A stretch of 18,844 nucleotides of DNA. It comes from a virus. The notes under the pieces are model-generated. The model saw only the letters and a list, made by a program, of their open reading frames with translations, did no database searches and was not told the origin of the DNA. The position numbers and the translations under genes are program-made. The stretch is taken from IMG/VR virus record IMGVR_UViG_3300045988_023617; one strand, 5' to 3'. Shown one piece after another: positions 1 through 18,632 of the stretch. Position 1 is the first letter of the stretch. Each line of letters opens with the position of its first letter.

Positions 1-216
1 GGAGGGGAGGGGCCCCAGCCACTAGCCTTTTTCCACAACCGCTCTGTTATGTGTTTGTGTTTTCTTTTGCGTTGTGTGTTCTTGCTTGTATTGTTGGTGG
101 TTGTGGTTGTGGTGGGGTTTTTTTGTGTTGTTTTTTTGTGTGTTTTGGGTGTGTTGTTTTTGGTGTGTGGTATGATGTGAGTATCAACCGATAGGGAAAG
201 GAAAAAAATAAAATGA
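1..216. repeat. Left inverted terminal repeat (216 bp), perfect reverse complement of 18629..18844
   Basis: I compared the two ends base by base. They are identical from position 1 through 216 and diverge at 217 (a on the left, t in the right-end complement). The repeat reaches the very first and last base of the window, as expected for true ends of a protein-primed linear genome. Confidence 0.97.
168..176 (+). promoter_or_regulatory. Extended -10 promoter (TGGTATGAT) inside the left ITR, firing inward
   Basis: TGn + TATGAT at 168-176, directly after the G/T tract and about 37 nt upstream of the ATG at 213. It is the same motif class as the TGnTATAAT boxes at other gene junctions. No clear -35. 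Confidence 0.5.
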
Positions 217-377
217 ACACCGTTGTTTCGTTTGATTGGTGGAGCAAGTCCATTACAGTGGCATTCGTTGATTACAATACCGTGCACTATTTCGATGGGC
301 AACGCTATTACCGTCAAGGGCGCAAAGAGTCGTATGCGCCGCGAACTGTGCATGGCAACGGGCGTGGAATTGTCTAA
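213..377 (+). CDS. Left terminal early protein, 54 aa, unknown function; start codon lies inside the ITR
   Basis: Too short for the >=60-aa ORF track. ATG at 213-215 follows GGAAAGGA (196-203). Translation is MNTVVSFDWWSKSITVAFVDYNTVHYFDGQRYYRQGRKESYAPRTVHGNGRGIV, with TAA at 375-377. The mirror ATG at the right end opens a clear 85-aa ORF, which supports use of this initiation site. Confidence 0.5.
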   Translation: MNTVVSFDWWSKSITVAFVDYNTVHYFDGQRYYRQGRKESYAPRTVHGNGRGIV

Positions 378-437
378 TTTGAAGTATTGGCGGACGGACG
401 GTTCCGTTGATTACTATCGTGCGGATAGGGAGGGTGA

Positions 438-671
438 ATGATTGTGAGAGAGCATATGTATATCGTAGCTAGTTGGCCTTGTGTTGACTATGTCCAAGTG
501 GCAACTCCGACTCGTAATTACTATGTAGTCCATGCCGCAGACTCTTATGAGGCTTTGCGTAGGATTCTTCAGCTTGAGGGAGTTATACTTTACGCTCATG
601 TTAAGCGGCTCACGTCCTGCCGTAACGTTGGGGCCGGATATGTGGCTTATTATTATAGTGTGGTGTATTGA
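438..671 (+). CDS. Hypothetical early protein, 77 aa
   Basis: ORF-track entry. ATG is preceded by AGGGAGGG (427-434). No recognisable motif. Confidence 0.4.
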   Translation: MIVREHMYIVASWPCVDYVQVATPTRNYYVVHAADSYEALRRILQLEGVILYAHVKRLTSCRNVGAGYVAYYYSVVY

Positions 672-672
672 T

Positions 673-741
673 ATGTTTTCTTCGGTTCTTGTTATTTGCG
701 TATGCATCCTTGGTATTGTTGCCGTTTTTGGTATTATGTGA
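673..741 (+). CDS. Possible 22-aa hydrophobic micropeptide (MFSSVLVICVCILGIVAVFGIM)
   Basis: ATG at 673 lies 1 nt after the TGA of the preceding ORF. The whole product is about the length of one transmembrane helix. This is the in-frame tail of track ORF 532..741. No SD of its own, so translation would have to be coupled. Confidence 0.2.
   Translation: MFSSVLVICVCILGIVAVFGIM
729..737 (+). promoter_or_regulatory. Candidate extended -10 box (TGGTATTAT)
   Basis: TGn + TATTAT, 25 nt upstream of the ATG at 762 and just before its GGAAAGGA SD. Confidence 0.3.
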
Positions 742-761
742 TTGGAAAGGATAATTAAAAA

Positions 762-1007
762 ATGTCTTATGGTGACATTCGTGTCGGGAGGTTCAACAGC
801 TCTCATATGGGGGGTGACGTGCGTATCGAATACTGCACACACCAACATCTTTTTTATCTGACATATAACGTGGAGTTCCATACGCCAGTCGGCTTGACTG
901 AGGGCGTCGCGCGGTGCGGTTATGACCCTACGAAAGCCAATGAAATGCGTTCTATGGTGTTGGATGCTATGGATATTGCGGCCAAACCACTGGAGGATAG
1001 GGATTAG
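762..1007 (+). CDS. Hypothetical early protein, 81 aa
   Basis: ORF-track entry. SD-like GGAAAGGA (744-751) has the same sequence and similar spacing as the sites in the ITR and before the SSB gene. Confidence 0.5.
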   Translation: MSYGDIRVGRFNSSHMGGDVRIEYCTHQHLFYLTYNVEFHTPVGLTEGVARCGYDPTKANEMRSMVLDAMDIAAKPLEDRD

Positions 1008-2571: not shown

Positions 2572-2597
2572 GGCAACGTCCCTATAGGGATGTTGCC
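2572..2597 (+). promoter_or_regulatory. 26-bp near-perfect palindrome GGCAACGTCCCTA/TAGGGATGTTGCC
   Basis: The 13-nt arms are complementary except for one G-T position. It lies in the SSB-TP intergenic region, 6 nt downstream of a TATGAT hexamer (2561-2566). It could be an RNA hairpin or a dimeric protein-binding site. Confidence 0.45.
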
Positions 2598-2605
2598 GCC
2601 AGACT

Positions 2606-2647
2606 CACCCCCCGCCGTTTCCATCCTTGCGGCGAGGGGTGTTTCAT
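2606..2647 (+). terminator. GC-rich hairpin with short T run (possible attenuator or weak intrinsic terminator)
   Basis: CACCCCCCGCCG (2606-2617) pairs with CGGCGAGGGGTG (2630-2641) at 11 of 12 positions, with a 12-nt loop, followed by TTTCAT. It lies just upstream of the G-rich SD of the TP gene. Confidence 0.35.
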
Positions 2648-2664
2648 ACTCACAGGGGGGAACC

Positions 2665-3609
2665 GTGGCAAAACGCAAAAACCGCCGACGCGCTGACAAT
2701 CTGAAACGCAACGCCGCAATCAGGTCGGCACAGGTACGTCGGGAACGAGCAGTCAGAGATTACAGTACCGGACGTCTCCCCAAGCGAATCACCGAAACGT
2801 TCTTGGGGAATCTTAGTGCCCAACAGCTTGAGCAGGTCGCGCGACGCATTGGGCAGGAGTTCGGAGAACAACAGCAAGCCTTAAGGGCGCGGGATAATGA
2901 GACGTATCAGGTTGTTCCAGACGTTCGCGTCACGAAACTTGACCGTGAGATGGCCGCGCGTCCGCTGATTACCGATGCGGAAATCGCCGCCGCCCCGTCG
3001 AAACGTCGGAAAACATTGCGGCAGCAGCAGCGACGACGGGTCGAGGCACGGCAGAAAATCAAGCGTGCCCAACAATTCGAGGCGCTGGGCATGGCCCGCT
3101 ATACCGTGGGTGAAATGCGTGAGATGGAACGTGCGGGTGAATCTCCGTTTGATGTGCTGGGCACTCACACGGTTGGCGGTTCGGCACGTGACGAACTTAT
3201 GCGAAGCCGTGCGAATGTGTTCGGCTCAGAGCGTGGTATAAGTCATGCGCGTGTGATGATGCGAGAGGGAGACCGTAGGAAGCTTGAGCGAGAAGTGCTT
3301 GAATACGCCGGACTTGTAGGACGTGCGCCGTTGCGTGCGGGAACTAGGCGTATTCCTGAAAACGAAGGCGTTTCGGATTTTGATAAGGTCGCGCAACAGC
3401 TCGAAGCATTCGACTCTAGTGTCGCCCAAAGATTCGCTTCTTTGTCGAACCGACAAAAACGATGGCTGATAAACAACACGAATTTCAGCACCGTAGTACG
3501 CGAGGCAACGTGGTATAATGATAAGGCGCATAAATGGGAAACTAAATCGGACGCGGAGGATGTAGAGACACGACTTGATGAATGGATAACCAGCGCAGCA
3601 AGACACTAA
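2665..3609 (+). CDS. Putative terminal protein (replication primer)
   Basis: Track ORF 2590..3609, but its first 25 codons run through the two intergenic hairpins. GTG 2665 follows GGGGGGA (2655-2661) and gives 314 aa. The protein is highly basic at the N-terminus (KRKNRRRADNLKRN). It lies immediately upstream of the protein-primed polymerase, as in phi29-like phages. No direct sequence motif was recognised, so the call rests on position and composition. Confidence 0.55.
   Translation: MAKRKNRRRADNLKRNAAIRSAQVRRERAVRDYSTGRLPKRITETFLGNLSAQQLEQVARRIGQEFGEQQQALRARDNETYQVVPDVRVTKLDREMAARPLITDAEIAAAPSKRRKTLRQQQRRRVEARQKIKRAQQFEALGMARYTVGEMREMERAGESPFDVLGTHTVGGSARDELMRSRANVFGSERGISHARVMMREGDRRKLEREVLEYAGLVGRAPLRAGTRRIPENEGVSDFDKVAQQLEAFDSSVAQRFASLSNRQKRWLINNTNFSTVVREATWYNDKAHKWETKSDAEDVETRLDEWITSAARH
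3511..3519 (+). promoter_or_regulatory. Candidate extended -10 box (TGGTATAAT) inside the 3' end of the TP gene
   Basis: Perfect TGnTATAAT 106 nt upstream of the polymerase ATG. Being internal to a CDS, it is less certain than the boxes at gene junctions. Confidence 0.3.
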
Positions 3610-3624
3610 AAAAAGGATGGAATT

Positions 3625-5085
3625 ATGCGAGAGCGTCGAACGGCGGCAACAGACGGCGCAACATTATTGACGGATGACGGTATAACGCCATTGACGGCGA
3701 ACGCCGTCGTTCGCCTTACGATGCTTGACCATCATACGCGCGTATGGTGCGCACATGGATGGCAGGATATCAAGCTAATAGCGGCCGAGCTGTTGAGACG
3801 CCTCCCCCTGCAATCGAATCCGGCCAAGGATGGAGTTTATGGCACTTTTAATATTCGCGGCCACTTCTACAGTTTCCGCGTGCGCATGGGCGGTATCACC
3901 GTGGATTTTCTGGACGTGCGCAATGTCACACGCGACGACGGGCTGAATGTCTCACGTGAAACGTTTGGCGGTGCGGATGACTTGGAAACCACGTGGAACA
4001 TCGCGCAGGAATGCGACGCCCTGAGGCTCAAGGGCACGACCATAGCGTCTATGGCGATGGGCGATTATATCGGGGGAGATTACGCCGGATTCAAACAGCA
4101 CTTTCCGCCATTGGATAAAGCGGAATATCATCGGATGCGCCCCGCATACTATGGGGCGATAGTGTACAGCAGGCCGGGGGAATATCGGGATTGCAAGAGC
4201 TGGGACGTGAACAGCCTCTACCCGAGCGTCATGCGCGACTTTGCCATGCCCGTAGGCGCGCCGATATGGTATGAAGGAAAATATCATGATGATGCTGATT
4301 ATCCGCTGCATATCGATGTTATCTCGTTCGATGCTCGATTGAAGCCGGGGAAAACGGCTACGCTCACGAATATCCTACCCGTATGGGGGTACGAGGGCGA
4401 ACGTATGGACAGCACGTTAGGCGTCGTCACCATGCCAGTGGTCGACGTGGATTGGCAGACCTTGACGGAAAACTATGATGTCCATGCATGGGATTATATA
4501 GGCGGCTGGAAATTCCGTAAATCGCATGGACTCTATTACAACTACGTTGACAAATGGTTCCACGTGAAACAAACCGCAACCGGAGAGCGTCGGCAGATGG
4601 CGAAACTATTGCTTAATTCGTTGGTGGGGAAATTCGGAGCATCGCTTTATCGGCCTATGCTGCACCCGAAACCCTCTGGCGATGGCGGCGTGGATTTTAC
4701 CGTGGATAAACCCGAGTCAACCAACTCACTCGCATGGCTACCCACCGCCGCCTATGTCAACGCCTACGGGAGGCAAATACTGTCACGCGCGATGAATGCG
4801 AACGCCGACCGCGTGCTTTACGCCGATACGGACGGCATGATACTGGACGGACTGGATGCGCCCGCAGATATCGAAATGGACGATAAGAAACTGGGCGCGT
4901 GGAAAAACGACCACACCTATGAAAAACTCCGCATCCTCGGCAATCGCAAATACTGCGGCGCAGAGGAAGACGGCGGCACGGTGATGCGGTTGAGTGGCGT
5001 GCATCGAGCTGCCCCTATCCCCTACGACGACTTTTTGCCGAGGTCACGCCATGTCAACGATGACGGCTGTTTTTTTGTGCTATAA
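3625..5085 (+). CDS. Protein-primed family-B DNA polymerase (phi29 p2-like), compact 486 aa
   Basis: WDVNSLYPSVM (motif A, nt 4201-4233). MPVGAPIWYEGKYHDDADYPLHI matches phi29 LPYGEPIVFEGKYVWDEDYPLHI. AKLLLNSLVGKF (motif B, from about nt 4600). YADTDG (motif C, nt 4819-4836). KKLGAWKNDHTYEKLRILGNRKY (KxY). SD AAGGA lies upstream of the ATG. Confidence 0.95.
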   Translation: MRERRTAATDGATLLTDDGITPLTANAVVRLTMLDHHTRVWCAHGWQDIKLIAAELLRRLPLQSNPAKDGVYGTFNIRGHFYSFRVRMGGITVDFLDVRNVTRDDGLNVSRETFGGADDLETTWNIAQECDALRLKGTTIASMAMGDYIGGDYAGFKQHFPPLDKAEYHRMRPAYYGAIVYSRPGEYRDCKSWDVNSLYPSVMRDFAMPVGAPIWYEGKYHDDADYPLHIDVISFDARLKPGKTATLTNILPVWGYEGERMDSTLGVVTMPVVDVDWQTLTENYDVHAWDYIGGWKFRKSHGLYYNYVDKWFHVKQTATGERRQMAKLLLNSLVGKFGASLYRPMLHPKPSGDGGVDFTVDKPESTNSLAWLPTAAYVNAYGRQILSRAMNANADRVLYADTDGMILDGLDAPADIEMDDKKLGAWKNDHTYEKLRILGNRKYCGAEEDGGTVMRLSGVHRAAPIPYDDFLPRSRHVNDDGCFFVL

Positions 5086-5086
5086 T
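5078..5086 (+). promoter_or_regulatory. Extended -10 promoter (TGCTATAAT) overlapping the polymerase stop codon
   Basis: Perfect TGnTATAAT. The TAA stop (5083-5085) is part of the hexamer. It lies upstream of a 180-nt non-coding structured region and the scaffold and capsid genes. Confidence 0.5.
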
Positions 5087-5090
5087 AATC

Positions 5091-5251
5091 GGTAGCGGGG
5101 TGTGCGTCCCAAGCTGATTCAATGGCCCGACCGGTAGGCAATCGGTAAGGCGATTCGGTCGGATGTAGACGTGCGTAGCCAACGCCCATCGACGGCGAGG
5201 GAACCCGCACAGCCTAGCAATCCGGCACGGCAGCGTGATTGCCGCCGTGCC
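5091..5251 (+). ncRNA. Structured non-coding RNA candidate or long structured late-mRNA leader (possible packaging RNA)
   Basis: No credible ORF here. Hairpin CCGACC...GGTCGG (5127-5162) has inner stem AATCG/CGATT and loop GTAAGG. A long-range helix pairs TGTGCGTCCC (5101-5110) with GGGA..CGCACA (5199-5211). The terminal hairpin GGCACGGCAGC/GCCGCCGTGCC (5224-5251) has 10 of 11 bp and loop GTGATT. The implied RNA is about 160 nt if transcription starts just after the box at 5078-5086. Confidence 0.35.
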
Positions 5252-5271
5252 ATCTACCTTAAGAGGTGATT

Positions 5272-5613
5272 ATGGACGACACTGAAAATGACGACAAGCC
5301 GGACACCACGCCCGATGCCGAACCGGACGGAAACGCCGACGACAATACGCCGGACCCGGAACCAGAGGCGCAGGACGATAACGAACCCGACGACGCGGGC
5401 GACGACAAGAACGCCGACATGGCCGACCGTATCAGCGCATTGGAGGCGACCGTGGCGGAATTGTCCAAAACCGTCGAAGCGATGCGCGACGCCGCCGCCG
5501 ACCATGTGCTGAACGATGGCTCCGACGACAATGCGATGCCGGAATCGGCTGAAATGACCGACGACGATTACAACGGCACCTACGACACGTTCGACGACTT
5601 ATATGAAGACTGA
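5272..5613 (+). CDS. Putative scaffolding protein (phi29 gp7-like position), very acidic
   Basis: The track ORF starts at GTG 5266. ATG 5272 has AAGAGG (5261-5266) 5 nt upstream. 113 aa with a D/E/P/T-rich N-terminus and a central helical segment (ADRISALEATVAELSKTVEAMRDAA). It lies directly upstream of the major capsid gene. Confidence 0.6.
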   Translation: MDDTENDDKPDTTPDAEPDGNADDNTPDPEPEAQDDNEPDDAGDDKNADMADRISALEATVAELSKTVEAMRDAAADHVLNDGSDDNAMPESAEMTDDDYNGTYDTFDDLYED

Positions 5614-5639: not shown

Positions 5640-7370
5640 ATGGCAACTACGCCAGTGGTGACGCCGAAGCAGCAATTGCGCCCGCTCACCGAATTCAATA
5701 ACGCTCAGATTCTCAACATGATTCGTAACGAGGCTTCGCCGGAATACCAGCGGCGAATGCCCTCGGCCACTCAGATGAACATGGACCGCCAGATGGCTAC
5801 GCTTATGTCTTCCACCCAGCTGAAGAACGAGTTTTATTCGGCGCTGGTGAACCGTATCGGCGGCACCTACGTGAACACATGGCGTTGGAATAATCCTCTC
5901 AGCGTTTTCCAGCGGGCATCGCAGGCGTATGGCGACACGTGGCAGGAAATCGCCGTGGGAATGCCGCTCGCGCAGGTCTATGACCCTGATGCGGAATATC
6001 TCGGCGCGGATAACTTCCGCAAGTGGAAAATCGACGTGGATTCGCTCTATCATCGTCTGGACTTTGCTCACTGGTATCCTGCGACCACGGATGATAAGAC
6101 GCTTCAGCGTGCTTTCACTTCCGAAAACGGTCTGGCCTCGCTCACTTCTCAGATTCTCACATCCTGCTACAATGCGGCTGAGGTTGACTTGTTCGAGGCT
6201 CTGTGCCACCAATTCGTCGAATACGCGAAACTCGGCGGCTATTGGCGTGTCCACATGGACAATGACCTGAACAACATGGGTAGTTCGGAAACGGACGCTC
6301 GCGACATGCTACGCCAGATTCGCGCATGGGCGGACACGCTTAAATTCGTTTCCACCAAGTACAACGCCCGTCACATGCCGACCTTCGCCCGCCCGGACGA
6401 ACTCGTGCTGTTCTGTTCCCCGGAAGTCAAGTCGGCGCTTGACGTGCAGGGCCTCGCCACGGTATTCCAGCGTACCGACGCCGAGCCGACCATCGACCGG
6501 ATTATCGTTATCCCTCAGGACAGGTTCGGCATGGATGGCGTACAGGCCATCCTAACGACCGACAAGTTTCTGATTGACATTCCGGTCATTAACGAAATGA
6601 CTCAGCAGACTAATCCGGTCAACATCAATTCGGTGAACCATTATCTGCATGTCCAACACATCATCTCGGTGTCCGGCTTCGCTCCGGCTGTCATGTTCTG
6701 GACGGGTGCCGGTTCCACCGCGAACGTGGTGACCCCTACCGGCACGCAGGCCGAAGCGCCGAAGTTCCAGCTCAAGCTTGCCATGTATGGCGGCGGTTCG
6801 GAAACTCCGAGCGATGTGGCGCGTGGCGGCGCGGTGCAGGTTACTGCCGACACGACTATCGCTAATGACGGTACCGCCACGTTCCGCTCGGATGCGGTCG
6901 AGTATCGTATCGGTGACACCGCCAAGCCGAAGAGCGATTACACGTATGTCTCGCCTACTGGCGTGCTTGTGGTCGGACTTGACGAACCGAACACCACCAT
7001 CCCGATCACCGCAACCGCATTGTACACGAATCCGGCGACGCCGGAAGTGCCGGGAACCGTGTCCGCGGCTCTGGACGTGCCAGTGGTCGGTGACGGTGTT
7101 ATCGGATTCAATCCGTCCATCATCGCATCCATTGCCGTGACCGTCCCGAACATGATCGTAGGACATACGGCGCAGGCGACTGCCGTGGCGACCATGATTG
7201 ACGGACGCACCGCCGACGTGACCGCACAGGCCGCTTGGACGTCCGGCACTCCGGCGAACGCCACCGTGTCCGAGTCCGGCGTGGTGACTGGCGTCAAGGC
7301 GGGCAGCTCTGACATCGCCGCCACGCTGTTCGGCGTGTCCGGCAAGAAGAGTGTGACCGTGACCGCGTGA
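5640..7370 (+). CDS. Major capsid protein (phi29 gp8-like) with C-terminal Ig-like (Big_2-type) domain
   Basis: [20 protein letters not shown] resembles gp8 [32 protein letters not shown] resembles NDFITSLVDRIG. NNPLSVF resembles [20 protein letters not shown] resembles IYNSAEVDEYEYM. The C-terminus ([68 protein letters not shown]) is a typical Big_2 pattern, and a second beta-rich segment precedes it. Strong SD GGAAGGAAGGA. Confidence 0.92.
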   Translation: [576 protein letters not shown]

Positions 7371-7376
7371 TATAAT
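7368..7376 (+). promoter_or_regulatory. Extended -10 promoter (TGATATAAT) overlapping the capsid stop codon
   Basis: The TGA stop (7368-7370) supplies the TGn of a perfect TGnTATAAT. A 105-nt structured leader follows, up to the tail-knob ATG. Confidence 0.5.
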
Positions 7377-7422
7377 GGGAGGGTAGCCGGTTGGCTACTC
7401 TCTCTCACGGTGTGATGCAAGA

Positions 7423-7463
7423 CAAGGCCCGGAGCGCAATCCACGTGATTGCTCCGGGCCTTG
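7423..7463 (+). promoter_or_regulatory. Strong hairpin between capsid and tail-knob genes (attenuator or RNA-stability element)
   Basis: CAAGGCCCGGAGC (7423-7435) pairs perfectly with GCTCCGGGCCTTG (7451-7463), 13 bp, plus an inner AATC/GATT stem. The apex contains CACGTG. No T run follows. A smaller hairpin GTAGCC-GGTT-GGCTAC lies at 7383-7398. Confidence 0.5.
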
Positions 7464-7481
7464 CCATACCGGAGGACAATA

Positions 7482-9809
7482 ATGATTGACGACGCGAACC
7501 CTTACGTAGAATCTAATTTTTCTTGGGCGGAATGGACACCGAACACGACACTGAAACTCTGCCGAGTGCCGTGGGATGCTTCATACCGTGATATCGTGCG
7601 GTTTGTTTCACGTGAAACGCAGCGAGAATGGTTCGACAAACTGGACGGCGTGGAATGCCGTCCGGCCACTATGCATATTTTCAACGCGCCCGCCCGCGTC
7701 GAACTGCCGTTTAACGAAGCATCGAACTGGAATTATCTTGTAGCCTATAACGACTACCCCGAATTGGAGGGGCCTCGCGCGTGGTATTACTTCATTCAGC
7801 GCGTCGAATACGTCAACGCCCATTGCACGCAATTGGTCTTGATGCTGGACGTGTGGCAGAGTTTCCAGCACGACGTCACATTCGGTAGCTGCTATGTGAC
7901 GCGCGGTCATATCGGCGTCGCCAACGAACGCCAGTGGAATGACTATGGGCGCACATATCTGGCGCTCCCGGAGGGCTTGGATACCGGAAGTGAAATGGTC
8001 ACAACGTCACAGGAATATCAGAGCATTATCGAAGGACGGCATTATGACATAGATGGCGGTGCCGTCGATTGGGTCGATTACGGTTTGATTGTGGTCAGCA
8101 CCACTAATCTCACCGACGACCCCGGCAGCACGTCCGAACCAAAGCTTACCACCGCAACCGGGGCCATCTTCGAGCAGGAGACGGACGGCTGTTCTGTCTA
8201 CTATTGTGAAAACCGAATGGCGTATGTCGCCAACATCATGGCCCTTGGCACGCTGTTCCCGTGGATAACGCAAGGTATTTGCGCCGTCTACATGGTGCCG
8301 AAAATTCCACAGGATTACGTGAGCCGATATGGGCATAGGGTTACGGAGATTTACGGGCAGCCAGTGTCAGAGGAATACGGCAACATTTATTCTTTTAATT
8401 CCTCTCTCGATTCGGACTTACGCTACGAGGATGTTATGTCCGTTGCGAACTTTCGCAATAAATTCAACATCCCCGCCCGATACCGGAATCTGCGCAAGCT
8501 CTATTGTTATCCGTTCTGCGTTATAGAATGCAGCTGTCTGAACGGCACGGTCATTACTTATCGACCTGAAGATATTCAATCCGATACGCTCACTGTCCGT
8601 GAAACCTACACTTACGCGCCGTCCGGTGCAAGAATCAATTTCTACATTCCCGGCTACAATGAGGCTGGAGCGACTACTACGGTCCCGCTGCGTATCGACG
8701 GCAAAGACATGGGGCTACCGATAGACGGCGGCGAAATGCTCAACGCAAGTTTCGGTATCACCAATTTGCCTCACTTTTCAGTGGTCAACAATGGTGGCGC
8801 GCTGGCTATGGCGAACAGCGCGTACACCCGCGCCTACGCGCAGGAGTCAGCCCAATGGACCAGGCAAAAGGCTTTAACTTCGGCTAACGTGGTCAACTCC
8901 AATGCCGCATTACAGCGCGAATACGCCACACGGCAAACCAATTGGGCAAACGAGAATCGGACGGCAACCAACGCCATCACTGCAAACTCGCTAAACCAGT
9001 CCCTTGCCATCGGACAGAATCAGACCAGCCAGATGGCTAATCTCCAAGTGGAGCAAAATATCAAGAGCAACAATCTCAACGGTATGGCCGGTATCATCGG
9101 GGGGGGACTGAACGCCGTCGCATCCCGCAGTCCATTGGGTGCGGTGAACGCGGTTGGCGGCGCGTTCCTCGGCTCCGCACATACGGACATCGCCAATTAC
9201 GGCATCAATTCGTCTGCCGCTGTCTCCAATTCCACGGCGGCGGCGAATACGGCGAATCAGATTGCCACCAATGCGGCGGCCACGTCGCAGGCCAACGCCT
9301 ACGCAAGCGGAGCGACCGCACTGGGCAACCAGCTGAACGCCGTCGTGTCGCAGGCGAATTACGGACTGGCCTCATATGCGGCTCAAGGTGATTACCAAAA
9401 CGCCATCGCCGGAATTAACGCTCAGGTGCAGCAGATGCAACTGACTCCGCCAACCACTTCGGGAGCGCTCGGCGGTGACATGTTCAACTTAAGCAACGGA
9501 ATTATGGGCGTGTTGGTGCGGTTCAAAACGTGTGCGCCGAGCGCGTTGAGGGCGGCAGGTGAATACATGCTACGCTATGGGTATTTTGTCCAGCGATTCG
9601 TCACCCCTCCCGCCTCACTGGAATGCATGGAGAAATTCACGTTCTGGCAGATGCAGGAGGCGTATGTGCGGGGCACGCTGCCTGAAGAATACCGACTGAC
9701 AATCAAAGGTATGTTTGAACGTGGTGTGACGGTTTGGGACAAGCCCGAGTATATCGGCGTGACTGACTGGGCTGACAATGAGCCACTTCCGGGCATTGGT
9801 TACGAGTGA
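7482..9809 (+). CDS. Tail knob / distal tube protein (phi29 gp9-like)
   Basis: The track ORF begins at TTG 7449, inside the hairpin. ATG 7482 has GGAGGA 5 nt upstream and gives 775 aa. [28 protein letters not shown] resembles gp9 [41 protein letters not shown] resembles [25 protein letters not shown] resembles [23 protein letters not shown]...GVTVWD resembles KYGYKINR...GITLWH. Confidence 0.88.
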   Translation: [775 protein letters not shown]

Positions 9810-9815
9810 TATAAT
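9807..9815 (+). promoter_or_regulatory. Extended -10 promoter (TGATATAAT) overlapping the tail-knob stop; 6 nt upstream of the portal ATG
   Basis: The TGA stop (9807-9809) is the TGn of a perfect TGnTATAAT. The hexamer ends at 9815 and the portal ATG starts at 9822. No SD lies between them. Confidence 0.55.
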
Positions 9816-9821
9816 GGCAGT

Positions 9822-10772
9822 ATGAGTAGGTCTAAAAAGAATCGAGTTGGCGGCGCGTTGCACCCACGTGGCAATTACGCGAAAACACGCGCCGTCACGC
9901 TTGATGACATGTATCTTCATTTGCTGATGGAACTCGCACTGAACCGTTTCAGCTGGCGCGGATTACCGCCCACTGTAGACGAACGTTGGCTGGAAATATG
10001 TCTGTGCGAATACGGATGCGCGTTGTTTTTCGAGGATAAGCGTATCGGCAGGTTCCTTGTGACTCAGGCAGGTTATCAAGGCAGATTGAACGTGTATAAT
10101 AATCCGACATGTTTCGAGCCGGTAGGCGTCAACTACCACTACAAGCAGCTCAAGGCCGGTTCGGAATGCATCCCTATCTGGGATAATCGAATGCGCGTCG
10201 GATTCAAGCCGACGTTATGGCAGTACGCGCGGCGCCTCGCCGACATTGACAAGGCGTATGACGTGAATCTGGAGAGTCTGAAGCTGCCGACCATCATCAC
10301 TGCCGACCCTCGCACCAAGCTCACCGTGCAGAACATGCTTCAACAACGGCAGGACGGTCAGGATTATATTATCGGATACGATTCGCTTGACCCCGGCAGC
10401 TCGTTCCAGCCGTGGCCGAACACAACGCCTTATCTGTTGGACAAGTTCGTCCAGCAAAAAGCGCAAGTGACTAATGAGGTGTTGGGATATCTCGGCATTC
10501 AATCGTCCGGCACGGAGAAAAAGGAACGGCTTATTTCCGATGAGGTGGCGCAAGCCAATGAGAAAGTAGACGTGTTCCGCTTGAGTTTCCTCAAGGCGCG
10601 GCAGACTGCGGCGACTGAGATTAACCGATTGTGGCCGCAACTGAACGTGTGGGTGGAGTATGCGGACGCGCAAAGCTCCGGCGTGCCCAACGCGCTTGAT
10701 TCAAGCGCAGGCGGCACTACGGACATCGATATGCCCGCATCGTACGACGCGGGTATCGGAGGGGTATTATGA
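9822..10772 (+). CDS. Portal / upper collar connector protein (phi29 gp10-like)
   Basis: 316 aa. LALNRFSWRGLPPTV resembles gp10 LAYQLFEWENLPPTI. GTEKKERLISDEV resembles NLEKKERMVTDEV. Basic N-terminus, as in gp10. No SD is present, so this is a candidate leaderless gene. Confidence 0.9.
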   Translation: MSRSKKNRVGGALHPRGNYAKTRAVTLDDMYLHLLMELALNRFSWRGLPPTVDERWLEICLCEYGCALFFEDKRIGRFLVTQAGYQGRLNVYNNPTCFEPVGVNYHYKQLKAGSECIPIWDNRMRVGFKPTLWQYARRLADIDKAYDVNLESLKLPTIITADPRTKLTVQNMLQQRQDGQDYIIGYDSLDPGSSFQPWPNTTPYLLDKFVQQKAQVTNEVLGYLGIQSSGTEKKERLISDEVAQANEKVDVFRLSFLKARQTAATEINRLWPQLNVWVEYADAQSSGVPNALDSSAGGTTDIDMPASYDAGIGGVL

Positions 10773-11566
10773 TGACGCAGGATTTTACCGCCTATGCTAT
10801 GGAGACTCCCGGCGAGTACACTGAAACTCTCGGCAATCTCATTGCATTCGGATACGACACGGCTGACAAGCTGCATCTGTCCGCCGACTACTATCCGATT
10901 TACCGAGAAGAACATCGTGCGGAATTGAACGAGAAAATCGTTCGCCATTACGCATTAAGGGAAATTGGGCAGGAAACCGCGCAGCAATTCGTTTTCTACT
11001 TGGGAACGACGATGGCGGAAATCATGCCCTATTTCAACGAGCGTTACCGGACGCTGGACATGCAATACAATCCGTTGGACTCTATGGATATGACGACGGA
11101 CAGCGAGAGCGGCAGCGAATCCCAGTCGTCCGGCAAAGCGTCCAGTACGCAGGACTCGACCAGCTCTAGCACATCCAAGTCAGACAATTCCAGCACTACC
11201 ACGTCAAAGAGTTTTGATAGCGACGTGCCGCAAACCGGTGTTGTAGGCGACTTCGCCCGCTACGCCTCCCATGCGAACGAATCGCAGGCGGACAGTTCCG
11301 GTACCGCGTCCAGTTCGCAGGATTCGACCAGTCACACCACGGCGCAAAGCGCAACCGACTACCAACACGATTCGAGCAACGCAAAGGGCAAGAGTCATGT
11401 GACCGGGCGCAGTCAGAGCGCCATGAGTCTGATTCAGGAATACCGGAACGCCATCATCAACGTGGATATGGAAATCGTACGCAGCCTCGAACCGTGTTTC
11501 ATGCAGATATGGGGTTCGTATGATACAATATTCGGCAACTGCCATAACTATGGAGAATGGGAGTAA
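10769..11566 (+). CDS. Lower collar protein (phi29 gp11-like) with long Ser/Thr-rich central segment
   Basis: 265 aa. ATGATG overlaps the portal stop (ATGA coupling), and GGAGGGG lies upstream. It sits directly after the portal. An N-terminal helical region (REIGQETAQQFVFYLGTTMAEIMPYFNERY) is followed by an S/T/D/Q-rich stretch and a conserved-looking C-terminus (LIQEYRNAIINVDMEI). Confidence 0.7.
   Translation: MMTQDFTAYAMETPGEYTETLGNLIAFGYDTADKLHLSADYYPIYREEHRAELNEKIVRHYALREIGQETAQQFVFYLGTTMAEIMPYFNERYRTLDMQYNPLDSMDMTTDSESGSESQSSGKASSTQDSTSSSTSKSDNSSTTTSKSFDSDVPQTGVVGDFARYASHANESQADSSGTASSSQDSTSHTTAQSATDYQHDSSNAKGKSHVTGRSQSAMSLIQEYRNAIINVDMEIVRSLEPCFMQIWGSYDTIFGNCHNYGEWE
11521..11529 (+). 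promoter_or_regulatory. Candidate extended -10 box (TGATACAAT) upstream of the appendage genes
   Basis: TGn + TACAAT, 40 nt upstream of ATG 11569, inside the 3' end of the lower-collar gene. Confidence 0.3.
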
Positions 11567-12725: not shown

Positions 12726-14660
12726 ATGGCTACCGTATACAGTAAAACCGATAATTACGGGCTTAATTTGTATGGCGACAATGACCCAGCCGATTTAAGG
12801 GACGGCTACAATGGCTCCATGCACACCATTGACGATACGCTCGGAAAGCACCTTAACCGAATCGAAGGTGTCGAGTCGCGTGAAACGCATGATGAGGAAG
12901 TGGTCAAAGCGCTGATTGGTGATAACACGGTTGACAGCGCCACCGCATCGAAAGCCAAATGGGATAAATCGATTACAGACGCCGCCGCCGCAACCGCCGC
13001 CGCCGCAGCCGCAGCAGGTAAGGCGGACGACAATACCGCGATTCTCTCCGCGTTGGGAGCCGACACCACGGCAAACGCCACCGCCAATAAAACCAAATGG
13101 GATAAAGCGGGAGCGGACGCAGCGACAGCCATAGGCAAGGCTGACAACAATAAAACAATTCTTACCGCACTTGGGGCAGGCTCAACCGTTGACGCCACGA
13201 CGCAAAAAACCAAACTGGACAACACCGCCACCAAGGTGGACGAGCTTGCGAACGCGCGCGTGGACAGCAAGCTTGACTCGCACTTCATCATCCATGCGCA
13301 CCGTGGTTCCTACCGTTTTCCCGAAAACACAATGGAAGGGATTATGTGGGCGGTACGTCACGGATATATACCTGAAATCGACGTGCAACTCACGTCGGAC
13401 GGCGTGCCCGTAATCCTACACGACACCTCCACCGCCCGCACGATGACGGGGACGGCAGCTAACGTTTCATCCATCACTTACGCCGATTTTATGTCACGTG
13501 AAGTCAAAGCCAAGGTTCACGGCGGCAACACCGGCAAGCCAGTGAGTATGGAACAGGTGCTACAGGCTGTGGGGGATAGTCCCGTCGATTTTGAAATCAA
13601 GTCATTGACCAACGAAACTACGGACGCAATGCTGGAACTACTGCGAAAGTATAGCGCCACCGCAATCCACGAAGTGACTTCGTTCAGCTGGGAACAGTGC
13701 GTCCGCGCCGTGCAAGGGGGCATAAAATACGTTTCGTGGACGTGGGACGCTAACGCCATGCCACATTCTTGGGCTGACATGAAGAATGCCGGTATTTTCT
13801 GCGGAAACCCGCGTGAAGACAAACTCACTTCGGCAATGGTCAGCGCCGCACACTCGGCTGGCGTCAAGATTAATCCGTGGCTTATTAATGATCCCGTGGC
13901 ATATGAGCGAGTCACCGCGCTTGGAGTTGATGGCATTACCTCCAATTGGCCGGATTACGCCAGTGGACAGTTGGAGCGCAACTTCACGCCATTCAGCACG
14001 GGACAGAACGTTTTCATGCGTCCGAACTATGCCCCACAAGGCGGCACGGTATCACAGGAAATATCGGAAGCGGTTAGGGCGAAAAGCTCGTATCTCGCAC
14101 CGGACGGACTTTTCCAACTCGGAGACGCGGACTCTCAGATGCTAGTGGAATTGGTTGAGTGCGGCACGGTGACGCTGCCGGTCAGTATCGACCTTGAAGG
14201 GTTTGAGTCTCGCGTTCAGATTGGCGAGAATGGCGAGACGAAGAACATTGCAGTAATCGCAGTGAAGGAGTCAACCCCTATCGGCCAATTCAACGACGTG
14301 GCAACGGCTGGACAGGTCGGTATCATTGCGGGCGTTCGACGTAACGGTGCTACATTCGGCGGTTTTTATCAAGACAATGTGACGACGGTTGCCTTCGATA
14401 ATACCCCCGCAGTGTCTCCATCTGTGCCAAACGACAAAGCCGTAGGTGTGCATGCGTCCTTCGTTCTCGACCGTGACCACGCTCGAATCATTTGGGCGTA
14501 TTCCAATGGACAATCAGGTGATGTGACCACAGGAGATAATAAGGGCGTCACGTTGCCGGATACCGATAAATACCGTCTGTTTATCCGCCTTGCTCGCAAT
14601 TTTAAGAGCGCATGGAAAATTAGGGTACGCCCCTCTGATGGTTATCTCTACGAGAACTGA
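12726..14660 (+). CDS. Tail appendage / receptor-binding protein with glycerophosphodiester phosphodiesterase (GDPD) domain
   Basis: 644 aa. It carries the shared N-terminal module (KTDNYGLNLYGDNDPADLRDGYNGSMHTIDDTLGKHLNRI) and ~40-aa repeats with an Ala run. The GDPD signature is HAHRGSYRFPENTMEG...EIDVQLTSDGVPVILHD...INPWLINDP...GVDGITSNWPD (approx nt 13281-13955). A ~230-aa C-terminal domain of unknown fold follows. Confidence 0.85.
   Translation: MATVYSKTDNYGLNLYGDNDPADLRDGYNGSMHTIDDTLGKHLNRIEGVESRETHDEEVVKALIGDNTVDSATASKAKWDKSITDAAAATAAAAAAAGKADDNTAILSALGADTTANATANKTKWDKAGADAATAIGKADNNKTILTALGAGSTVDATTQKTKLDNTATKVDELANARVDSKLDSHFIIHAHRGSYRFPENTMEGIMWAVRHGYIPEIDVQLTSDGVPVILHDTSTARTMTGTAANVSSITYADFMSREVKAKVHGGNTGKPVSMEQVLQAVGDSPVDFEIKSLTNETTDAMLELLRKYSATAIHEVTSFSWEQCVRAVQGGIKYVSWTWDANAMPHSWADMKNAGIFCGNPREDKLTSAMVSAAHSAGVKINPWLINDPVAYERVTALGVDGITSNWPDYASGQLERNFTPFSTGQNVFMRPNYAPQGGTVSQEISEAVRAKSSYLAPDGLFQLGDADSQMLVELVECGTVTLPVSIDLEGFESRVQIGENGETKNIAVIAVKESTPIGQFNDVATAGQVGIIAGVRRNGATFGGFYQDNVTTVAFDNTPAVSPSVPNDKAVGVHASFVLDRDHARIIWAYSNGQSGDVTTGDNKGVTLPDTDKYRLFIRLARNFKSAWKIRVRPSDGYLYEN
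12927..13250 (+). repeat. In-frame ~40-aa tandem repeats (about 2.5 copies) in the fiber shaft
   Basis: The units are SATASKAKWDKSITDAAAATAAAAAAAGKADDNTAILSALGA, TANATANKTKWDKAGADAATAIGKADNNKTILTALGA, and the partial VDATTQKTKLDNTATKVDEL. Confidence 0.75.
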
Positions 14661-14676
14661 TGGACTATTTTAAGCG

Positions 14677-14709
14677 ATAGCCATGCTGCTATAATAGCAG
14701 CATGGCTAT
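14677..14709 (+). promoter_or_regulatory. Perfect 33-nt palindrome containing an extended -10 box (TGCTATAAT, 14687-14695) and the ATG of the tail-lysin gene
   Basis: ATAGCCATGCTGCTAT-A-ATAGCAGCATGGCTAT has 16-nt arms with no mismatch. TATAAT (14690-14695) straddles the centre. ATG 14702 is in the 3' arm, exactly 6 nt after the hexamer. TACTTTTG follows the palindrome. Confidence 0.6.
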
Positions 14710-15940
14710 TACTTTTGATGATTGGGTTAAGCAGACACAAGACCGATATTGGGATATGGATGGCGCATACGGTGCGCAGTGCTGGGACCTATGGGCCAAG
14801 TATAGTATGGACATGTATGGTCTGAGCGTTCAAGACTGCATCACCCCCACCGGCTATGCCGAGGGATGCTATACGAGGTTCCCCTACACCGCCGCACTCG
14901 GCAACGTGTATGAGAAAATGGACTCCAATTATACGCCAGTTAAGGGTGACGTGGTTTTTTGGACATTCGGCGGTCAAATCTACACTGGCTCCCATGTCGC
15001 AATCGTATGGGGTGGCGTCACTGGCGATAATATCGATGTTCTAACACAAAATCCCACTCCGGCAGTTCATCAAACCTTGCCACTCTTGCGCGGTTCGCAG
15101 CTGCTCGGCTACCTGCATCCCAAGAACTTGCAGCCGGGCGGCACGACGCCGGATAATCCGAACGGCGGCAATCCCACGGGTGGGGATAATCAAGGTTCGG
15201 GCGTGTCTGGCGGTTCGTCCGCATGGATACAGCAACAGGGCGATAATTTGATATACCATTACGGCTCGCGTAGTGGCGGCATGTCGGCGTTGTTCGTCAA
15301 GACTACCGCGCAGAATTGGATATATCGCGGCGCGTCCGGCACGGGTGCGCCGGATGGAGACGGCGGGCAATCGTCGCCCAGTGTAGGCGACGGCGAGTCA
15401 AGTTATGCGCTTTATGTGGTGGGCACGGTTGAATCATCATTGCGATGGGATGCGGTAGAGCCTAATCGCCAAGGCATCGGCATTGCGCAATGGAGTTTCG
15501 GCCGCCGCCTGCAAGTACTGAACGCGATGAAGACGGTTGACGCTGATGGATACCGGACGTTCGCCGCCGCCGCGCCGGACATTGTCGCGCTTATGGACTC
15601 GGGCGGCACGTTTGACAGGGCAATGACCGGTAGTGAGGTTGCTGCGTTCCAGACGTGGGCACGTCGTCCTCAGTCTCATGCGGGTCAACGCGCTCAGTTC
15701 GCTACGGATTACGAGGGCTATCCGCAAAAATACGACGACGCGAAGATGCAAATACTGTGGACTTGCGCATATCATCAATCTCCCGCAGGTGCGTTGAACG
15801 TGCCGACCGCGACCACGCTTGCGGGGTTGCGTGACAACATTCTAGCCACATCCCCGTTCGGACCATATGGCACGCGATATCAGGCCGCCTATAGCTTGCT
15901 GAACGTCTGGGATGGGAAGAGTGCGCCGCCAAACTTTTAA
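14702..15940 (+). CDS. Tail-associated peptidoglycan hydrolase: N-terminal CHAP endopeptidase/amidase + C-terminal phi29 gp13-type lysozyme-like domain
   Basis: 412 aa. CHAP signature: DMDGAYGAQCWDL (Cys27), GSHVAIVWGG (His98), VLTQNP (Asn117). A Gly/Asn/Pro linker covers aa ~145-175. C-terminal VVGTVESSLRWDAVEPNRQGIGIAQWS resembles gp13 GNMQSESTINPGLW...GFGLVQWT, with a putative catalytic Glu in GTVES. It occupies the phi29 gene 13 position, after the appendage gene. Confidence 0.8.
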   Translation: MAITFDDWVKQTQDRYWDMDGAYGAQCWDLWAKYSMDMYGLSVQDCITPTGYAEGCYTRFPYTAALGNVYEKMDSNYTPVKGDVVFWTFGGQIYTGSHVAIVWGGVTGDNIDVLTQNPTPAVHQTLPLLRGSQLLGYLHPKNLQPGGTTPDNPNGGNPTGGDNQGSGVSGGSSAWIQQQGDNLIYHYGSRSGGMSALFVKTTAQNWIYRGASGTGAPDGDGGQSSPSVGDGESSYALYVVGTVESSLRWDAVEPNRQGIGIAQWSFGRRLQVLNAMKTVDADGYRTFAAAAPDIVALMDSGGTFDRAMTGSEVAAFQTWARRPQSHAGQRAQFATDYEGYPQKYDDAKMQILWTCAYHQSPAGALNVPTATTLAGLRDNILATSPFGPYGTRYQAAYSLLNVWDGKSAPPNF

Positions 15941-15946
15941 CAAGTG

Positions 15947-15955
15947 TGCTATACT
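15947..15955 (+). promoter_or_regulatory. Extended -10 promoter (TGCTATACT), 6 nt upstream of the ATPase ATG
   Basis: TGn + TATACT ends at 15955 and the ATG is at 15962. There is no SD before either ATG 15962 or the track's GTG 15944. Confidence 0.5.
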
Positions 15956-15961
15956 GGACAC

Positions 15962-17065
15962 ATGGGTGACATTAACGTGCTTAATGAGAATGATTATTAT
16001 GACTATGGTAGAGCATTGTCTTATCATAGTCCTTGGATGTTCGTAATCGGAGCACGTGGCCTCGGGAAAACCTATGGCGCTAAAAAATTGGTTATCGGTG
16101 ATTGGATTAAGAAACGCTGGCAATTCATTTATCTACGCCGGACAGCAGAGGAACAGAAGAATAAGGGCACATGGTTTGCAGACGTCGCGGAGCAATACCC
16201 GGAACTGGAATTTAGAGTGTCCGGGAATCAGGCCGAATGTCACTGGCTGGATGACAGGGACGCAACCGCAGACAAGCATGGCAAGAGCCGTGCGACATGG
16301 CATGTCATGGGGTATTTTATCGCCCTATCGCAAGCTGGACAGGTGAAATCGGTTGCCTACCCTAAAGTACGAACTATTATCTTCGACGAAATATTCCCCG
16401 ACAATATGCGCTATCTCGGCGGAGAAGTTACGGCGCTTGAGGAATTTTACAACACGGTTGACCGTTGGAACGATAGGGTTCGCGTTATCATGTGCAGCAA
16501 CGCCGTAACGTTGGCTAACCCGTATTTCAGCGCGTTTAATATCAACCTAAAACCGCAGTTGGATAATCACACACAATATCAGCGATATTGTGACGGGTTC
16601 ATCATGGTGGAATTGGCCGATTACGGCGGATTCAGTGCCAAGGTTGCCACATCTAAATTCGGACAGTTTTTACGCAGGTATGACGAAAATTATGCGAATT
16701 ATGCAATCAATAATAATTTTAGAGATAATGCCAATGCTCTCATTAGTGATTTTAATAACGCCGGTTATGCGTTCACATTAAGAACCACTGAATACGGCGT
16801 TTTCAACGTTTATCAACAACTAAGCGATACCGATGAAGTATTGTATCTCATCACAAAAAAACAACCTAAAATCACAAGGGATTTTACATTTGACTATCGA
16901 CTGGTCGATAACGATTGTATGATGCTCAAACGTTCGGACGACATGACCCAGAAAATATTAAACGCCTATCGCGTCGGTAGATTACGGTTCGAGACTCCGC
17001 AAATTAAGGCGGAATTCAGTATGATTCTTGGCGGCTTGTTGCAACAATCAGGCATAAGAAAGTGA
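15962..17065 (+). CDS. DNA encapsidation (packaging) ATPase, phi29 gp16-like
   Basis: The track ORF starts at GTG 15944; ATG 15962 gives 367 aa. LSYHSPWMFVIGARGLGKTYGAKK resembles gp16 LSYDRILNFVIGARGIGKSYAMK (Walker A). QFIYLRRT resembles QFIYVRRY. TIIFDEIF resembles TIVFDEFI (Walker B). RVIMCSNAVTLANPYF resembles RCICLSNAVSVVNPYF. RVGRLRFE resembles MNGYLRFD. Confidence 0.93.
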   Translation: MGDINVLNENDYYDYGRALSYHSPWMFVIGARGLGKTYGAKKLVIGDWIKKRWQFIYLRRTAEEQKNKGTWFADVAEQYPELEFRVSGNQAECHWLDDRDATADKHGKSRATWHVMGYFIALSQAGQVKSVAYPKVRTIIFDEIFPDNMRYLGGEVTALEEFYNTVDRWNDRVRVIMCSNAVTLANPYFSAFNINLKPQLDNHTQYQRYCDGFIMVELADYGGFSAKVATSKFGQFLRRYDENYANYAINNNFRDNANALISDFNNAGYAFTLRTTEYGVFNVYQQLSDTDEVLYLITKKQPKITRDFTFDYRLVDNDCMMLKRSDDMTQKILNAYRVGRLRFETPQIKAEFSMILGGLLQQSGIRK

Positions 17066-18374: not shown

Positions 18375-18632
18375 TCAATCGCCGTTGTCAACCGAGACAA
18401 CATACGTACGGCACGGGCGACCCTTCTTAGACAAACACCGCCTGGTTTCAACGTAATCATAATCGTAGCTCAAAGAAAGTTCGATAACCGCTGCAAGAGC
18501 GGACTCGAACGTAATAACACTATCATCAAAACGACCATTATCACGAACGGGAGTCTTGAGCACGCCTTCAATACAAACTTCGTACCAATTGTCCTCTTCA
18601 AGTTCGATAACATAAGCGTTAAAATTAATCAT
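18375..18632 (-). CDS. Right terminal early protein, 85 aa, acidic, unknown function; start codon lies inside the ITR
   Basis: The only credible minus-strand gene. The ATG (complement of 18630-18632) and its SD are ITR sequence. It ends 5 nt before the bidirectional terminator region. Confidence 0.65.
   Translation of the reverse strand: MINFNAYVIELEEDNWYEVCIEGVLKTPVRDNGRFDDSVITFESALAAVIELSLSYDYDYVETRRCLSKKGRPCRTYVVSVDNGD

Follow-up and report, generated by a model that had tools for sequence, protein, structure and literature searches.

To our knowledge, no RNA other than the prohead RNA (pRNA) of phage phi29 serves as an essential component of a viral DNA-packaging motor. The phi29 molecule is 174 nucleotides (nt) long in total, with a domain I of 117 to 120 nt followed by a domain II, and it is encoded at the left end of the genome, from where it is transcribed leftward, opposite to the late genes. 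The last four nucleotides of its bulge (AACC) pair with the last four of its D loop (GGUU). According to reviews from 2016 (PMC5066667) and 2024 (PMC11476376), pRNA is confined to phi29 and the Bacillus phages related to it, and in the literature searched, we found neither a pRNA reported for Bifidobacterium phages nor any RNA reported for the genomes of BD811P, BP1, or BadAztec. Here, we describe a structured noncoding RNA from an 18,844-nt virus genome, IMG/VR record IMGVR_UViG_3300045988_023617 (the whole stretch of DNA is referred to below as the window), which lies in the 186-nt gap between the DNA polymerase gene and the scaffold gene. An earlier note, written from the letters of the window alone, had proposed this gap as a candidate packaging RNA or regulatory leader and had held that such an RNA was documented for Bacillus phages only, in agreement with the 2024 review. 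By analogy with phi29, we somewhat favor the reading that the gap RNA is a functional counterpart of pRNA.

Conservation and covariation of the gap RNA

The window is a complete or near-complete genome of a phi29-like podovirus of 18.8 kilobases (kb) in which every long open reading frame (ORF) lies on the plus strand and gene identities were assigned through Pfam and PHROG searches. The gap separates the polymerase stop codon (TAA, 5083-5085) from the scaffold start codon (ATG, 5272) at the point where replication genes meet structural genes. No other gap between called genes is as long, with 78 and 41 nt for the next two; the earlier note had described the region as the largest noncoding stretch outside the inverted terminal repeats. 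Searches of GenBank phage DNA, near and distant, gave zero matches to the window at the DNA level, and relatives were instead reached via protein searches. When the capsid and polymerase proteins were used to scan IMG/VR, 160 loci were obtained, among which the gap occurs in 98 distinct versions (the window clade; alignment A1). More divergent relatives were added by protein search and are named by their capsid identity as the 85%, 82%, and 77% clades, and base pairs compared across clades are given in the numbering of alignment A4.

The core of the gap (5094-5222) has a mean identity to the window of 93.7% across 93 relatives, compared with 66.8% at the third codon positions of the polymerase gene in the same genomes, and it was the more conserved of the two in all 93. 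Because its identity is far above that of the polymerase third codon positions, the core is under purifying selection, approximately as strong as that on first and second codon positions. The conserved stretch spans 125 nt.

Folding of the single sequence gave modest evidence that is not convincing alone: the plus strand has a z score of -2.84, with 1 of 200 shuffles as good, and the minus strand folds slightly better than the plus strand, with a z score of -3.84. The minimum free energy structure of the window sequence was rejected as the working fold, as it mispairs part of the C/E arm; the consensus fold was used instead and is only 1.8 kcal/mol above the minimum for the window sequence. 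Comparison across relatives gives strong support for the structure. Under the RNAalifold consensus fold of the 98 variants, 99.3% of cells pair, versus 26 to 43% when the partners are slid. The core varies little within the window clade, where most compensatory changes fall in the 3' hairpin. Once the divergent clades were added, 19 of the 51 pairs had changed on both sides, and none of 500 shuffles reached the observed covariation score.

These changes are distributed over the whole fold. In helix A, the A4 pairs 23:138, 24:137, and 28:133 change on both sides in the 77 to 82% clades, and G5097·U5215 is a G·U pair in 89 of the 98 variants, pointing to an RNA of the plus strand. Helix B, the inner continuation of helix A, has compensatory changes at A4 pairs 35:123, 37:121, and 46:114, with U·G frequent at 5115:5194. 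The C helix pairs in 99.4 to 99.7% of cells, with compensatory changes at A4 pairs 51:83, 52:82, and 53:81, and its stem CCGACCG/CGGUCGG becomes CCUCACG/CGUGGGG in divergent relatives. Two pairs of the E helix are exchanged in the 77% clade (A4 64:77 from A-U to C-G and 65:76 from U-A to G-C, turning AUCG/CGAU into CGCG/CGCG), while the E loop GUAAGG is conserved in every window-type clade. The closing pair of the D hairpin (5176:5182) covaries among the 98 variants (UA in 58, CG in 20, and UG in 20), and the GCC of the D loop is invariant or nearly so in the same set. The 3' hairpin begins 5 nt after the core; five to six of its stem pairs are compensatory and its loop is near-invariant. The three structures named in the earlier note are real: the nested hairpin at 5127-5162 is the C/E arm of the conserved fold, the long-range helix 5101-5110/5199-5211 is the inner part of helix A, and the terminal hairpin at 5224-5251 is the conserved 3' hairpin ahead of the Shine-Dalgarno (SD) sequence of the scaffold gene.

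An A·C mismatch on the plus strand corresponds to a G·U pair on the minus strand, and the two can be used to tell which strand is folded. On the plus strand, the core helices contain 247 G·U and 13 A·C pairs. Because G·U so far exceeds A·C, the structure is kept in a plus-strand RNA and not in the DNA or in a minus-strand transcript, and a minus-strand RNA is ruled out by these counts. The 3' hairpin is strand neutral, with 15 G·U and 13 A·C pairs. A protein-coding gap was also considered and rejected, since the short ORFs of 32 to 62 amino acids are all broken by 1-nt indels in relatives. Taken together, the gap encodes a structured noncoding plus-strand RNA of approximately 160 nt, which represents a new, well-supported family of structured phage RNA. 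No other conserved multihelix noncoding element was found elsewhere in the window genome, and no structured element lies at its left end.

A stand-alone RNA gene in Bifidobacterium phages

Among cultured phages, those closest in capsid protein are the Bifidobacterium podophages BadAztec, BD811P1 to BD811P3, and BP1, with 36 to 42% identity. Because these relatives infect Bifidobacterium, the host of the window phage is probably a Bifidobacterium or a bacterium closely related to it; contigs of bacterial genomes, scanned for the host, gave no match. The genomes of BD811P2, BP1, and BadAztec1 have the same gene order as the window and an unannotated polymerase-scaffold gap of 178 to 230 nt. In BD811P2 and BP1, the gap opens with TGCTATAAT at the polymerase stop, followed by approximately 130 nt closed by a long 5'/3' helix and by a GC hairpin with the loop GUGAUU, after which come AUUUUAUUUU, a second promoter TGATATAAT, and the SD and ATG of the scaffold gene. 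Seventy further IMG/VR variants are organized in the same manner, and the U-rich tail and second promoter are present in 72 of 72. Because it has its own promoter, its own terminator, and a second promoter before the scaffold gene in 72 of 72 variants, the RNA of the BD811P clade is predicted to be a separate transcription unit and not a scaffold leader, and such a stand-alone gene in sister clades argues against a purely cis-acting leader. The fold of this clade is 96.5% paired, with 24 of 43 pairs compensatory, and it also favors the plus strand (267 G·U versus 68 A·C).

The window gap RNA has the features by which the locus of this Bifidobacterium phage family is recognized, namely, the motif TGNTATAAT at the polymerase stop, a closed three-way junction, and a GUGAUU hairpin. 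The GUGAUU loop of the 3' hairpin is identical in the window and BD811P clades (for example, at 4876-4881 of L161 and at approximately 13043-13048 on the minus strand of BP1), although the stems covary freely, and the 82% and 77% clades have GUUAUU and AUUAUU, respectively. Since GUGAUU resembles the tail of the extended SD of the phage, GAGGUGAU, a role as a ribosome or anti-SD mimic was considered. It was rejected on the differing loops of the 77% and 82% clades and on the lack of enrichment of CGTGATTG. A second CGTGATTG at 7444-7451 is within chance expectation.

Structured gaps are also present in more distant phages. In BadAztec1 and BadAargau2, the gap holds an RNA of approximately 160 nt with an outer helix that covaries (ACAG/CUGU to GCGG/CCGC) and a 3' GC hairpin; between these two genomes, the only ones of this type available, the inner helix also covaries and the interior is invariant. 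Arthrobacter phage Mendel (NC_048740) has an unannotated 172-nt gap ahead of its scaffold-like gene (4925-5110) with a z score of -6.45, in which a long closing helix is followed by a 14-bp (base pair) hairpin. In Actinomyces phage Av-1 (NC_009643), the gap at 4465-4615 upstream of ORF8 has a z score of -3.55 and a 14-bp hairpin with UUUUU right before the SD. A conserved 17-base motif matches almost solely phi29-like contigs of 17 to 19 kb.

Architecture compared with the phi29 pRNA

The pRNA consensus (Rfam RF00044, Phage_pRNA) was read from the match on phi29, which scored 145 bits as a positive control against a gathering score of 100 bits. Element by element, the folds of the window and BD811P RNAs are isomorphic with this consensus (Table 1). 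The core of the window RNA, of approximately 125 nt, and its 3' hairpin also compare in size with domains I and II of pRNA. A descriptor written with these dimensions matches the pRNA of phi29 and, among gap RNAs, those of the window, BD811P2, BP1, and the loci L251 and L257 (77% and 85% clades), against a background of 0.61 loci per shuffled genome, or approximately 0.003 per 186-nt interval on one strand.

Table 1. Dimensions of the phi29 pRNA and of the gap RNAs of BD811P2 and the window
Element	phi29 pRNA	BD811P2	Window
Helix A	~22 bp with bulges	~19 bp	~24 bp
Junction before C helix	1 nt	5-6 nt	1 nt
C helix	9 bp + 1-nt 5' bulge	9 bp + 1-nt 5' bulge	7 bp
5' bulge (CE loop)	9 nt	7 nt	7 nt
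E stem	4 bp	4 bp	4 bp
E loop	6 nt	7 nt	6 nt
Unpaired on 3' side of arm	none	none	1 nt
Junction before D	3 nt	3-4 nt	10 nt
D stem	6 bp	7 bp	4 bp
D loop	5 nt	5 nt	5 nt
D to helix A	0 nt	0 nt	0 nt
After core	domain II hairpin	3' hairpin	3' hairpin

The genomic setting is likewise similar. Like the phi29 pRNA, the gap RNA comes from a podovirus of the phi29 type that has a gp10 connector and a gp16 ATPase, and Pfam families match for both proteins, as the earlier note had claimed for this portal and ATPase. It also has its own promoter and, in the sister clades, its own terminator. The phi29 gp10 carries an RKR motif that binds pRNA, and the N terminus of the window connector is basic (MSRSKKNR) and can be likened to it. 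The nearest cultured relatives of the window phage infect Actinobacteria (Bifidobacterium), in contrast to the Bacillus hosts of the known pRNA phages.

One claim of a pRNA in an actinobacterial phi29-like phage already exists in a sequence record. The GenBank entry of Av-1 annotates a "packaging RNA" at 16295-16402, at the right end of the genome, where it overlaps minus-strand ORFs. This annotation resembles the interpretation offered here but places the RNA at a different site. The annotated stretch folds no better than its shuffles (z score of +0.53) and gave no match to the pRNA descriptor.

Complementarity between the bulge and the D loop

The 5' bulge of the C/E arm and the D loop are complementary in all three types of RNA in Table 1. 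In the BD811P clade, the pairing is ACCA/UGGU or GCCA/UGGC, and 98.6% of cells pair. At the one pair that varies, 58 variants have G-C, 7 have A-U, and 7 have G·U, with none unpaired; the A-U versions are spread over approximately four to five separate lineages, and the remaining three pairs are kept in 94 to 100%. These pairs occupy the same register as the AACC/GGUU pairs of phi29, and one of them covaries. The window type has G and C on swapped sides relative to the BD811P clade (GGC in the bulge and GCC in the D loop), and this combination is almost invariant in the window clade, where a single variant out of 98 carries GGA. In the 77% clade, the bulge reads CGUGGCA and the pairing UGGCA/UGCCA extends over 5 bp, and in one of the three variants carrying the D loop UUUGCCGA, the pairing is GGCAA/UUGCC. 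Complementarity of the bulge and D loop is thus kept across RNAs without alignable sequence.

Promoter and probable start of the transcript

The earlier note had the gap preceded by a promoter, and this is borne out by the extended -10 element TGCTATAAT at 5078-5086, which belongs to an enriched motif. The motif TGNTATAAT occurs five times in the window, always on the plus strand (3511-3519, 5078-5086, 7368-7376, 9807-9815, and 14687-14695), against an expectation of 0.5 per window, and none of 200 shuffles reached five. Four of the five sites are at gene boundaries, three of them overlapping the stop codon of the upstream gene (polymerase, capsid, and tail knob); the site at 3511 is approximately 100 nt inside the ORF upstream of the polymerase gene. 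The set looks like a phage promoter set with one promoter per gene block. Among the 98 variants, TG-n-TATAAT at 5078-5086 is conserved and the following 7 nt vary freely, with the conserved fold beginning thereafter. For these reasons, we infer that transcription starts at approximately 5094/5095, at the foot of helix A and 8 to 9 nt past the -10 element.

Weighing a packaging role against other explanations

Under the packaging interpretation, the TGCTATAAT promoter overlapping the polymerase stop would drive a transcript with the core (5095-5218) and the 3' hairpin (5224-5251). Helix A would carry the gp16 ATPase, and the two arms of the three-way junction, C/E and D, would rest against the connector and prohead. 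The GGC bulge of one molecule would pair with the GCC of the D loop of the next, thereby closing a ring. In the window lineage, transcription of the scaffold and capsid genes would yield the RNA as the 5' portion of their transcript, alongside the prohead proteins, and weak termination or processing at the 3' hairpin would then free it. We infer the 3' end, the intermolecular pairing, the binding of connector and ATPase, and the packaging role itself from the comparison with phi29. The proposal of a packaging RNA has gained support from folding, conservation, covariation, and loop-loop complementarity, all of which gave positive results. In its fullest form, it would make the gap RNA a true prohead RNA, the first outside the Bacillus phages, with a motor RNA ancestral to the phi29-like phages of Firmicutes and Actinobacteria and produced here as a scaffold-capsid leader; for this version, we consider the case evenly balanced.

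Several observations weigh against a packaging role. The RNA is pRNA-like by architecture, context, and loop complementarity but fails a test of membership by sequence model: RF00044, the Rfam scan suggested by the earlier note, gave no match at E ≤ 10 on the whole window, on the 196-nt stretch with the gap alone, or on three Bifidobacterium phage genomes. A covariance model built from the BD811P clade (model R1, filters off) likewise found no match at the window gap, and it also misses the RNAs of BadAztec, Mendel, Reje, Av-1, and phi29. The window and BD811P RNA types are thus linked only by locus, promoter, architecture, and the GUGAUU loop. Of the other relatives, the best inner fold of the BadAztec type has no bulged arm and does not fit the pRNA descriptor, and the gap cores of Mendel and Av-1 are unlike the pRNA type and do not fit it either. 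The tolerances of the descriptor were chosen after the RNAs had been seen, which makes its background figures optimistic. The window RNA also departs from pRNA in details, as the junction strand between C and D has 10 nt in place of UUU, the D stem is short at 4 bp, and the RNA is GC rich. Its loop-loop contact comprises only GGC/GCC, three invariant G-C pairs without covariation that are weak evidence alone, and the pairing could be a tertiary contact within one molecule. Unlike the left-end, leftward-transcribed pRNA gene of phi29, the window RNA is encoded on the plus strand between the polymerase and scaffold genes. Finally, none of the 98 window-clade variants has a second promoter (TGNTATRAT) between the 3' hairpin and the scaffold ATG, and the tail after the hairpin (ACUUACUUU or AUCUACCUU, the latter in the window itself) is moderately U rich with no U-tract. 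Because the window clade has neither a U-rich terminator nor a second promoter, the gap RNA is the 5' part of the scaffold-capsid transcript and is contiguous with it unless termination or processing frees the RNA.

This last point is the starting point of the main rival, a cis-acting 5' leader of the late scaffold-capsid operon, which we regard as possible but doubtful. Such a leader could be a 5' domain that stabilizes the messenger RNA (mRNA), a site of read-through or attenuation at the 3' hairpin, or a modulator of access to the SD, comparable to what precedes the late genes of lambdoid phages. A 3' tail that is merely moderately U rich and the absence of a second promoter in the 98 variants make the RNA the 5' end of the scaffold mRNA, and a leader would suit a gap at the boundary of replication and structural genes. 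The single-sequence fold also predicts a small hairpin in which ACCU pairs with AGGU of the SD, and Av-1 and Mendel likewise have a structured gap with a strong hairpin directly before the scaffold SD. However, the RNA cannot be a leader in the BD811P clade, where a canonical terminator and then a fresh TGATATAAT stand between the RNA and the scaffold gene in all 72 variants. Nor is there an apparent way for helix A to pair with the arms of the hairpin, whose stem covaries separately from the core. Near-invariant loops and a near-invariant junction, combined with a closed 5'/3' helix, are what a stable, partner-binding RNA typically shows. A leader would also make the match to pRNA dimensions a coincidence.

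Two described kinds of regulatory RNA resemble the gap RNA in part. The lambda pR'-6S RNA-tR' unit and the put RNAs of HK022 are promoter-leader-terminator units ahead of late genes, and the gap shares with them a constitutive-looking promoter, a structured transcript of approximately 160 to 190 nt, a GC hairpin, and late structural genes on the same strand. It differs from them in that the second promoter past the terminator makes read-through unneeded in the BD811P clade. The put RNAs consist of two simple stem-loops of approximately 70 nt and lack a closed three-way junction with complementary loops, and no Q-like antiterminator gene was recognized among the window genes searched with Pfam and PHROG. 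Aptamers of the purine riboswitch type have in common with the gap RNA a closing helix, a three-way junction, and two arms with complementary loops, followed by a terminator-like hairpin. In the gap RNA, however, the contact is bulge to loop and not loop to loop, and no antiterminator alternative is apparent. In the BD811P clade, moreover, a separate promoter serves the gene downstream, and no Rfam riboswitch family matches.

A second rival is a trans-acting RNA with no part in packaging, such as a decoy or regulator of host protein or RNA, in which bulge and D loop kiss within the molecule and compact the three-way junction. Intramolecular kissing contacts are known in purine riboswitches and natural hammerheads. 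Here, the bulge lies approximately level with the D loop (7 to 9 bp versus 4 to 7 bp), so that a contact of this type is sterically plausible. The stand-alone gene of the BD811P clade and the lack of sequence or covariance-model similarity to pRNA fit this explanation as well, and the strongly conserved E loop, GUGAUU loop, and junction could be protein-binding sites. We nevertheless judge it improbable, as the RNA has been found only in phi29-like genomes with gp10 and gp16 and immediately upstream of the prohead genes, its architecture matches pRNA element by element down to the register of the loop pairs, and no known Rfam family matches it.

It is very unlikely, and largely refuted, that the gap holds no functional RNA and is a DNA-level element such as a protein-binding site or replication signal, a short protein gene, or an early terminator with chance flanks: the better minus-strand fold of the single sequence, the strand-neutral 3' hairpin, and the overlapping short ORFs would suit this, but core pairing is kept only in plus-strand RNA, the ORFs are broken by indels, compensatory changes occur in five separate helices, and 125 nt of conservation is far beyond a terminator.

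Coordinates and other features of the window

The elements of the gap RNA and the identified genes are listed in Table 2. Beyond these, the search of the window found no transfer RNA or transfer-messenger RNA, and the Rfam scan of the gap locus found no other family, giving only terminator-like subthreshold matches on BD811P2. On the minus strand of BP1, near the early end (18991-19102), there is a subthreshold match to the Rfam trpB noncoding RNA motif (35.9 bits versus a gathering score of 59; E = 0.24).

Table 2. Elements of the gap RNA and its surroundings and genes identified in the window
Feature	Position	Strand	Details
Protein-primed type B DNA polymerase	3625-5085	+	Pfam/PHROG
Extended -10 promoter TGCTATAAT	5078-5086	+	overlaps polymerase stop TAA 5083-5085
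Helix A, 5' strand	5095-5110	+	5095-5099/5213-5218, 5101-5110/5199-5211
Helix B (inner continuation of helix A), 5' strand	5113-5125	+	pairs with 5186-5196
C helix	5127-5133/5156-5162	+	5' strand CCGACCG, 3' strand CGGUCGG
CE-like 5' bulge GUAGGCA	5134-5140	+	GGC 5137-5139 complementary to D-loop GCC
E helix and loop	5141-5154	+	4 bp AUCG/CGAU (5141-5144/5151-5154); loop GUAAGG 5145-5150, 6 nt
U5155	5155	+	1-nt 3' bulge beside E helix
Junction strand AUGUAGACGU	5163-5172	+	unpaired, almost invariant, 10 nt
D hairpin	5173-5185	+	stem GCGU/ACGC (5173-5176/5182-5185); loop AGCCA 5177-5181, GCC 5178-5180; adjoins helix B 3' strand with 0 unpaired nt
3' strands of helix B (5186-5196) and helix A (5199-5218)	5186-5218	+	comparative fold
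3' hairpin, likened to pRNA domain II	5224-5251	+	11-bp stem; loop GUGAUU 5235-5240
Scaffold SD and start	5261-5274	+	SD AAGAGG 5261-5266, then ATG
Phi29-type major capsid protein	5640-7370	+	PF25622 Phi29_MCP
gp9-type tail knob	7449-9809	+	Pfam/PHROG
gp10 connector	9822-10772	+	PF05352 Phage_connector, E = 4e-42
Lower collar	10769-11566	+	Pfam/PHROG
GDPD-domain tail protein; CHAP lysin		+	Pfam/PHROG
gp16 encapsidation ATPase	15944-17065	+	PF05894 Podovirus_Gp16, E = 4e-42

Two further hairpins lie at promoter-like sites elsewhere in the window. A 12-bp hairpin at 7377-7404 on the plus strand (GGGAGGGUAGCC-GGUU-GGCUACUCUCUC) lies within the 78 nt that follow the capsid gene, right after TGATATAAT and the capsid stop; sliding-window z scores around it are -3.4 to -6.2 on both strands, and it has no clear U-tract. 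A perfect 16-bp palindromic hairpin at 14676-14710 (z score of -7.7), followed by ACUUUU, holds a promoter-like TGCTATAAT in its loop and 3' arm just upstream of the CHAP lysin gene and accounts for a weak Rfam match to IBV_D-RNA in the window.

The ends of the window (1-800 and 18400-18844) are low in GC (40 to 46%), with a GC skew of +0.34 on the left and -0.42 on the right, and these opposite skews fit terminal repeats and outward-facing replication ends. The polymerase ORF has 486 amino acids, and its Pfam match begins at position 172 of the 468 positions of the profile. Upstream of it, an ORF of 339 amino acids (2590-3609) with no Pfam or PHROG family match is in the position held by the terminal protein in Av-1.

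Implications for phi29-like phages

Even if the packaging role is wrong, the gap RNA represents a new, well-supported structured RNA family of phages. If the role is correct, this would account for a conserved gap that is left blank in the current annotations of these genomes, and in the window lineage, one transcript would supply both the RNA and the protein parts of the prohead. The long-standing question of why the motor needs an RNA would become testable in a second culturable system, BD811P and BP1 on Bifidobacterium. The family would also offer natural sequence variation for the three-way junction and kissing loops that are used in RNA nanotechnology. An RNA that is isomorphic with pRNA but unrelated to it in sequence, and that is carried by phages abundant in association with humans, would tell whether the RNA of the packaging motor is an ancestral component or a recurrent one.

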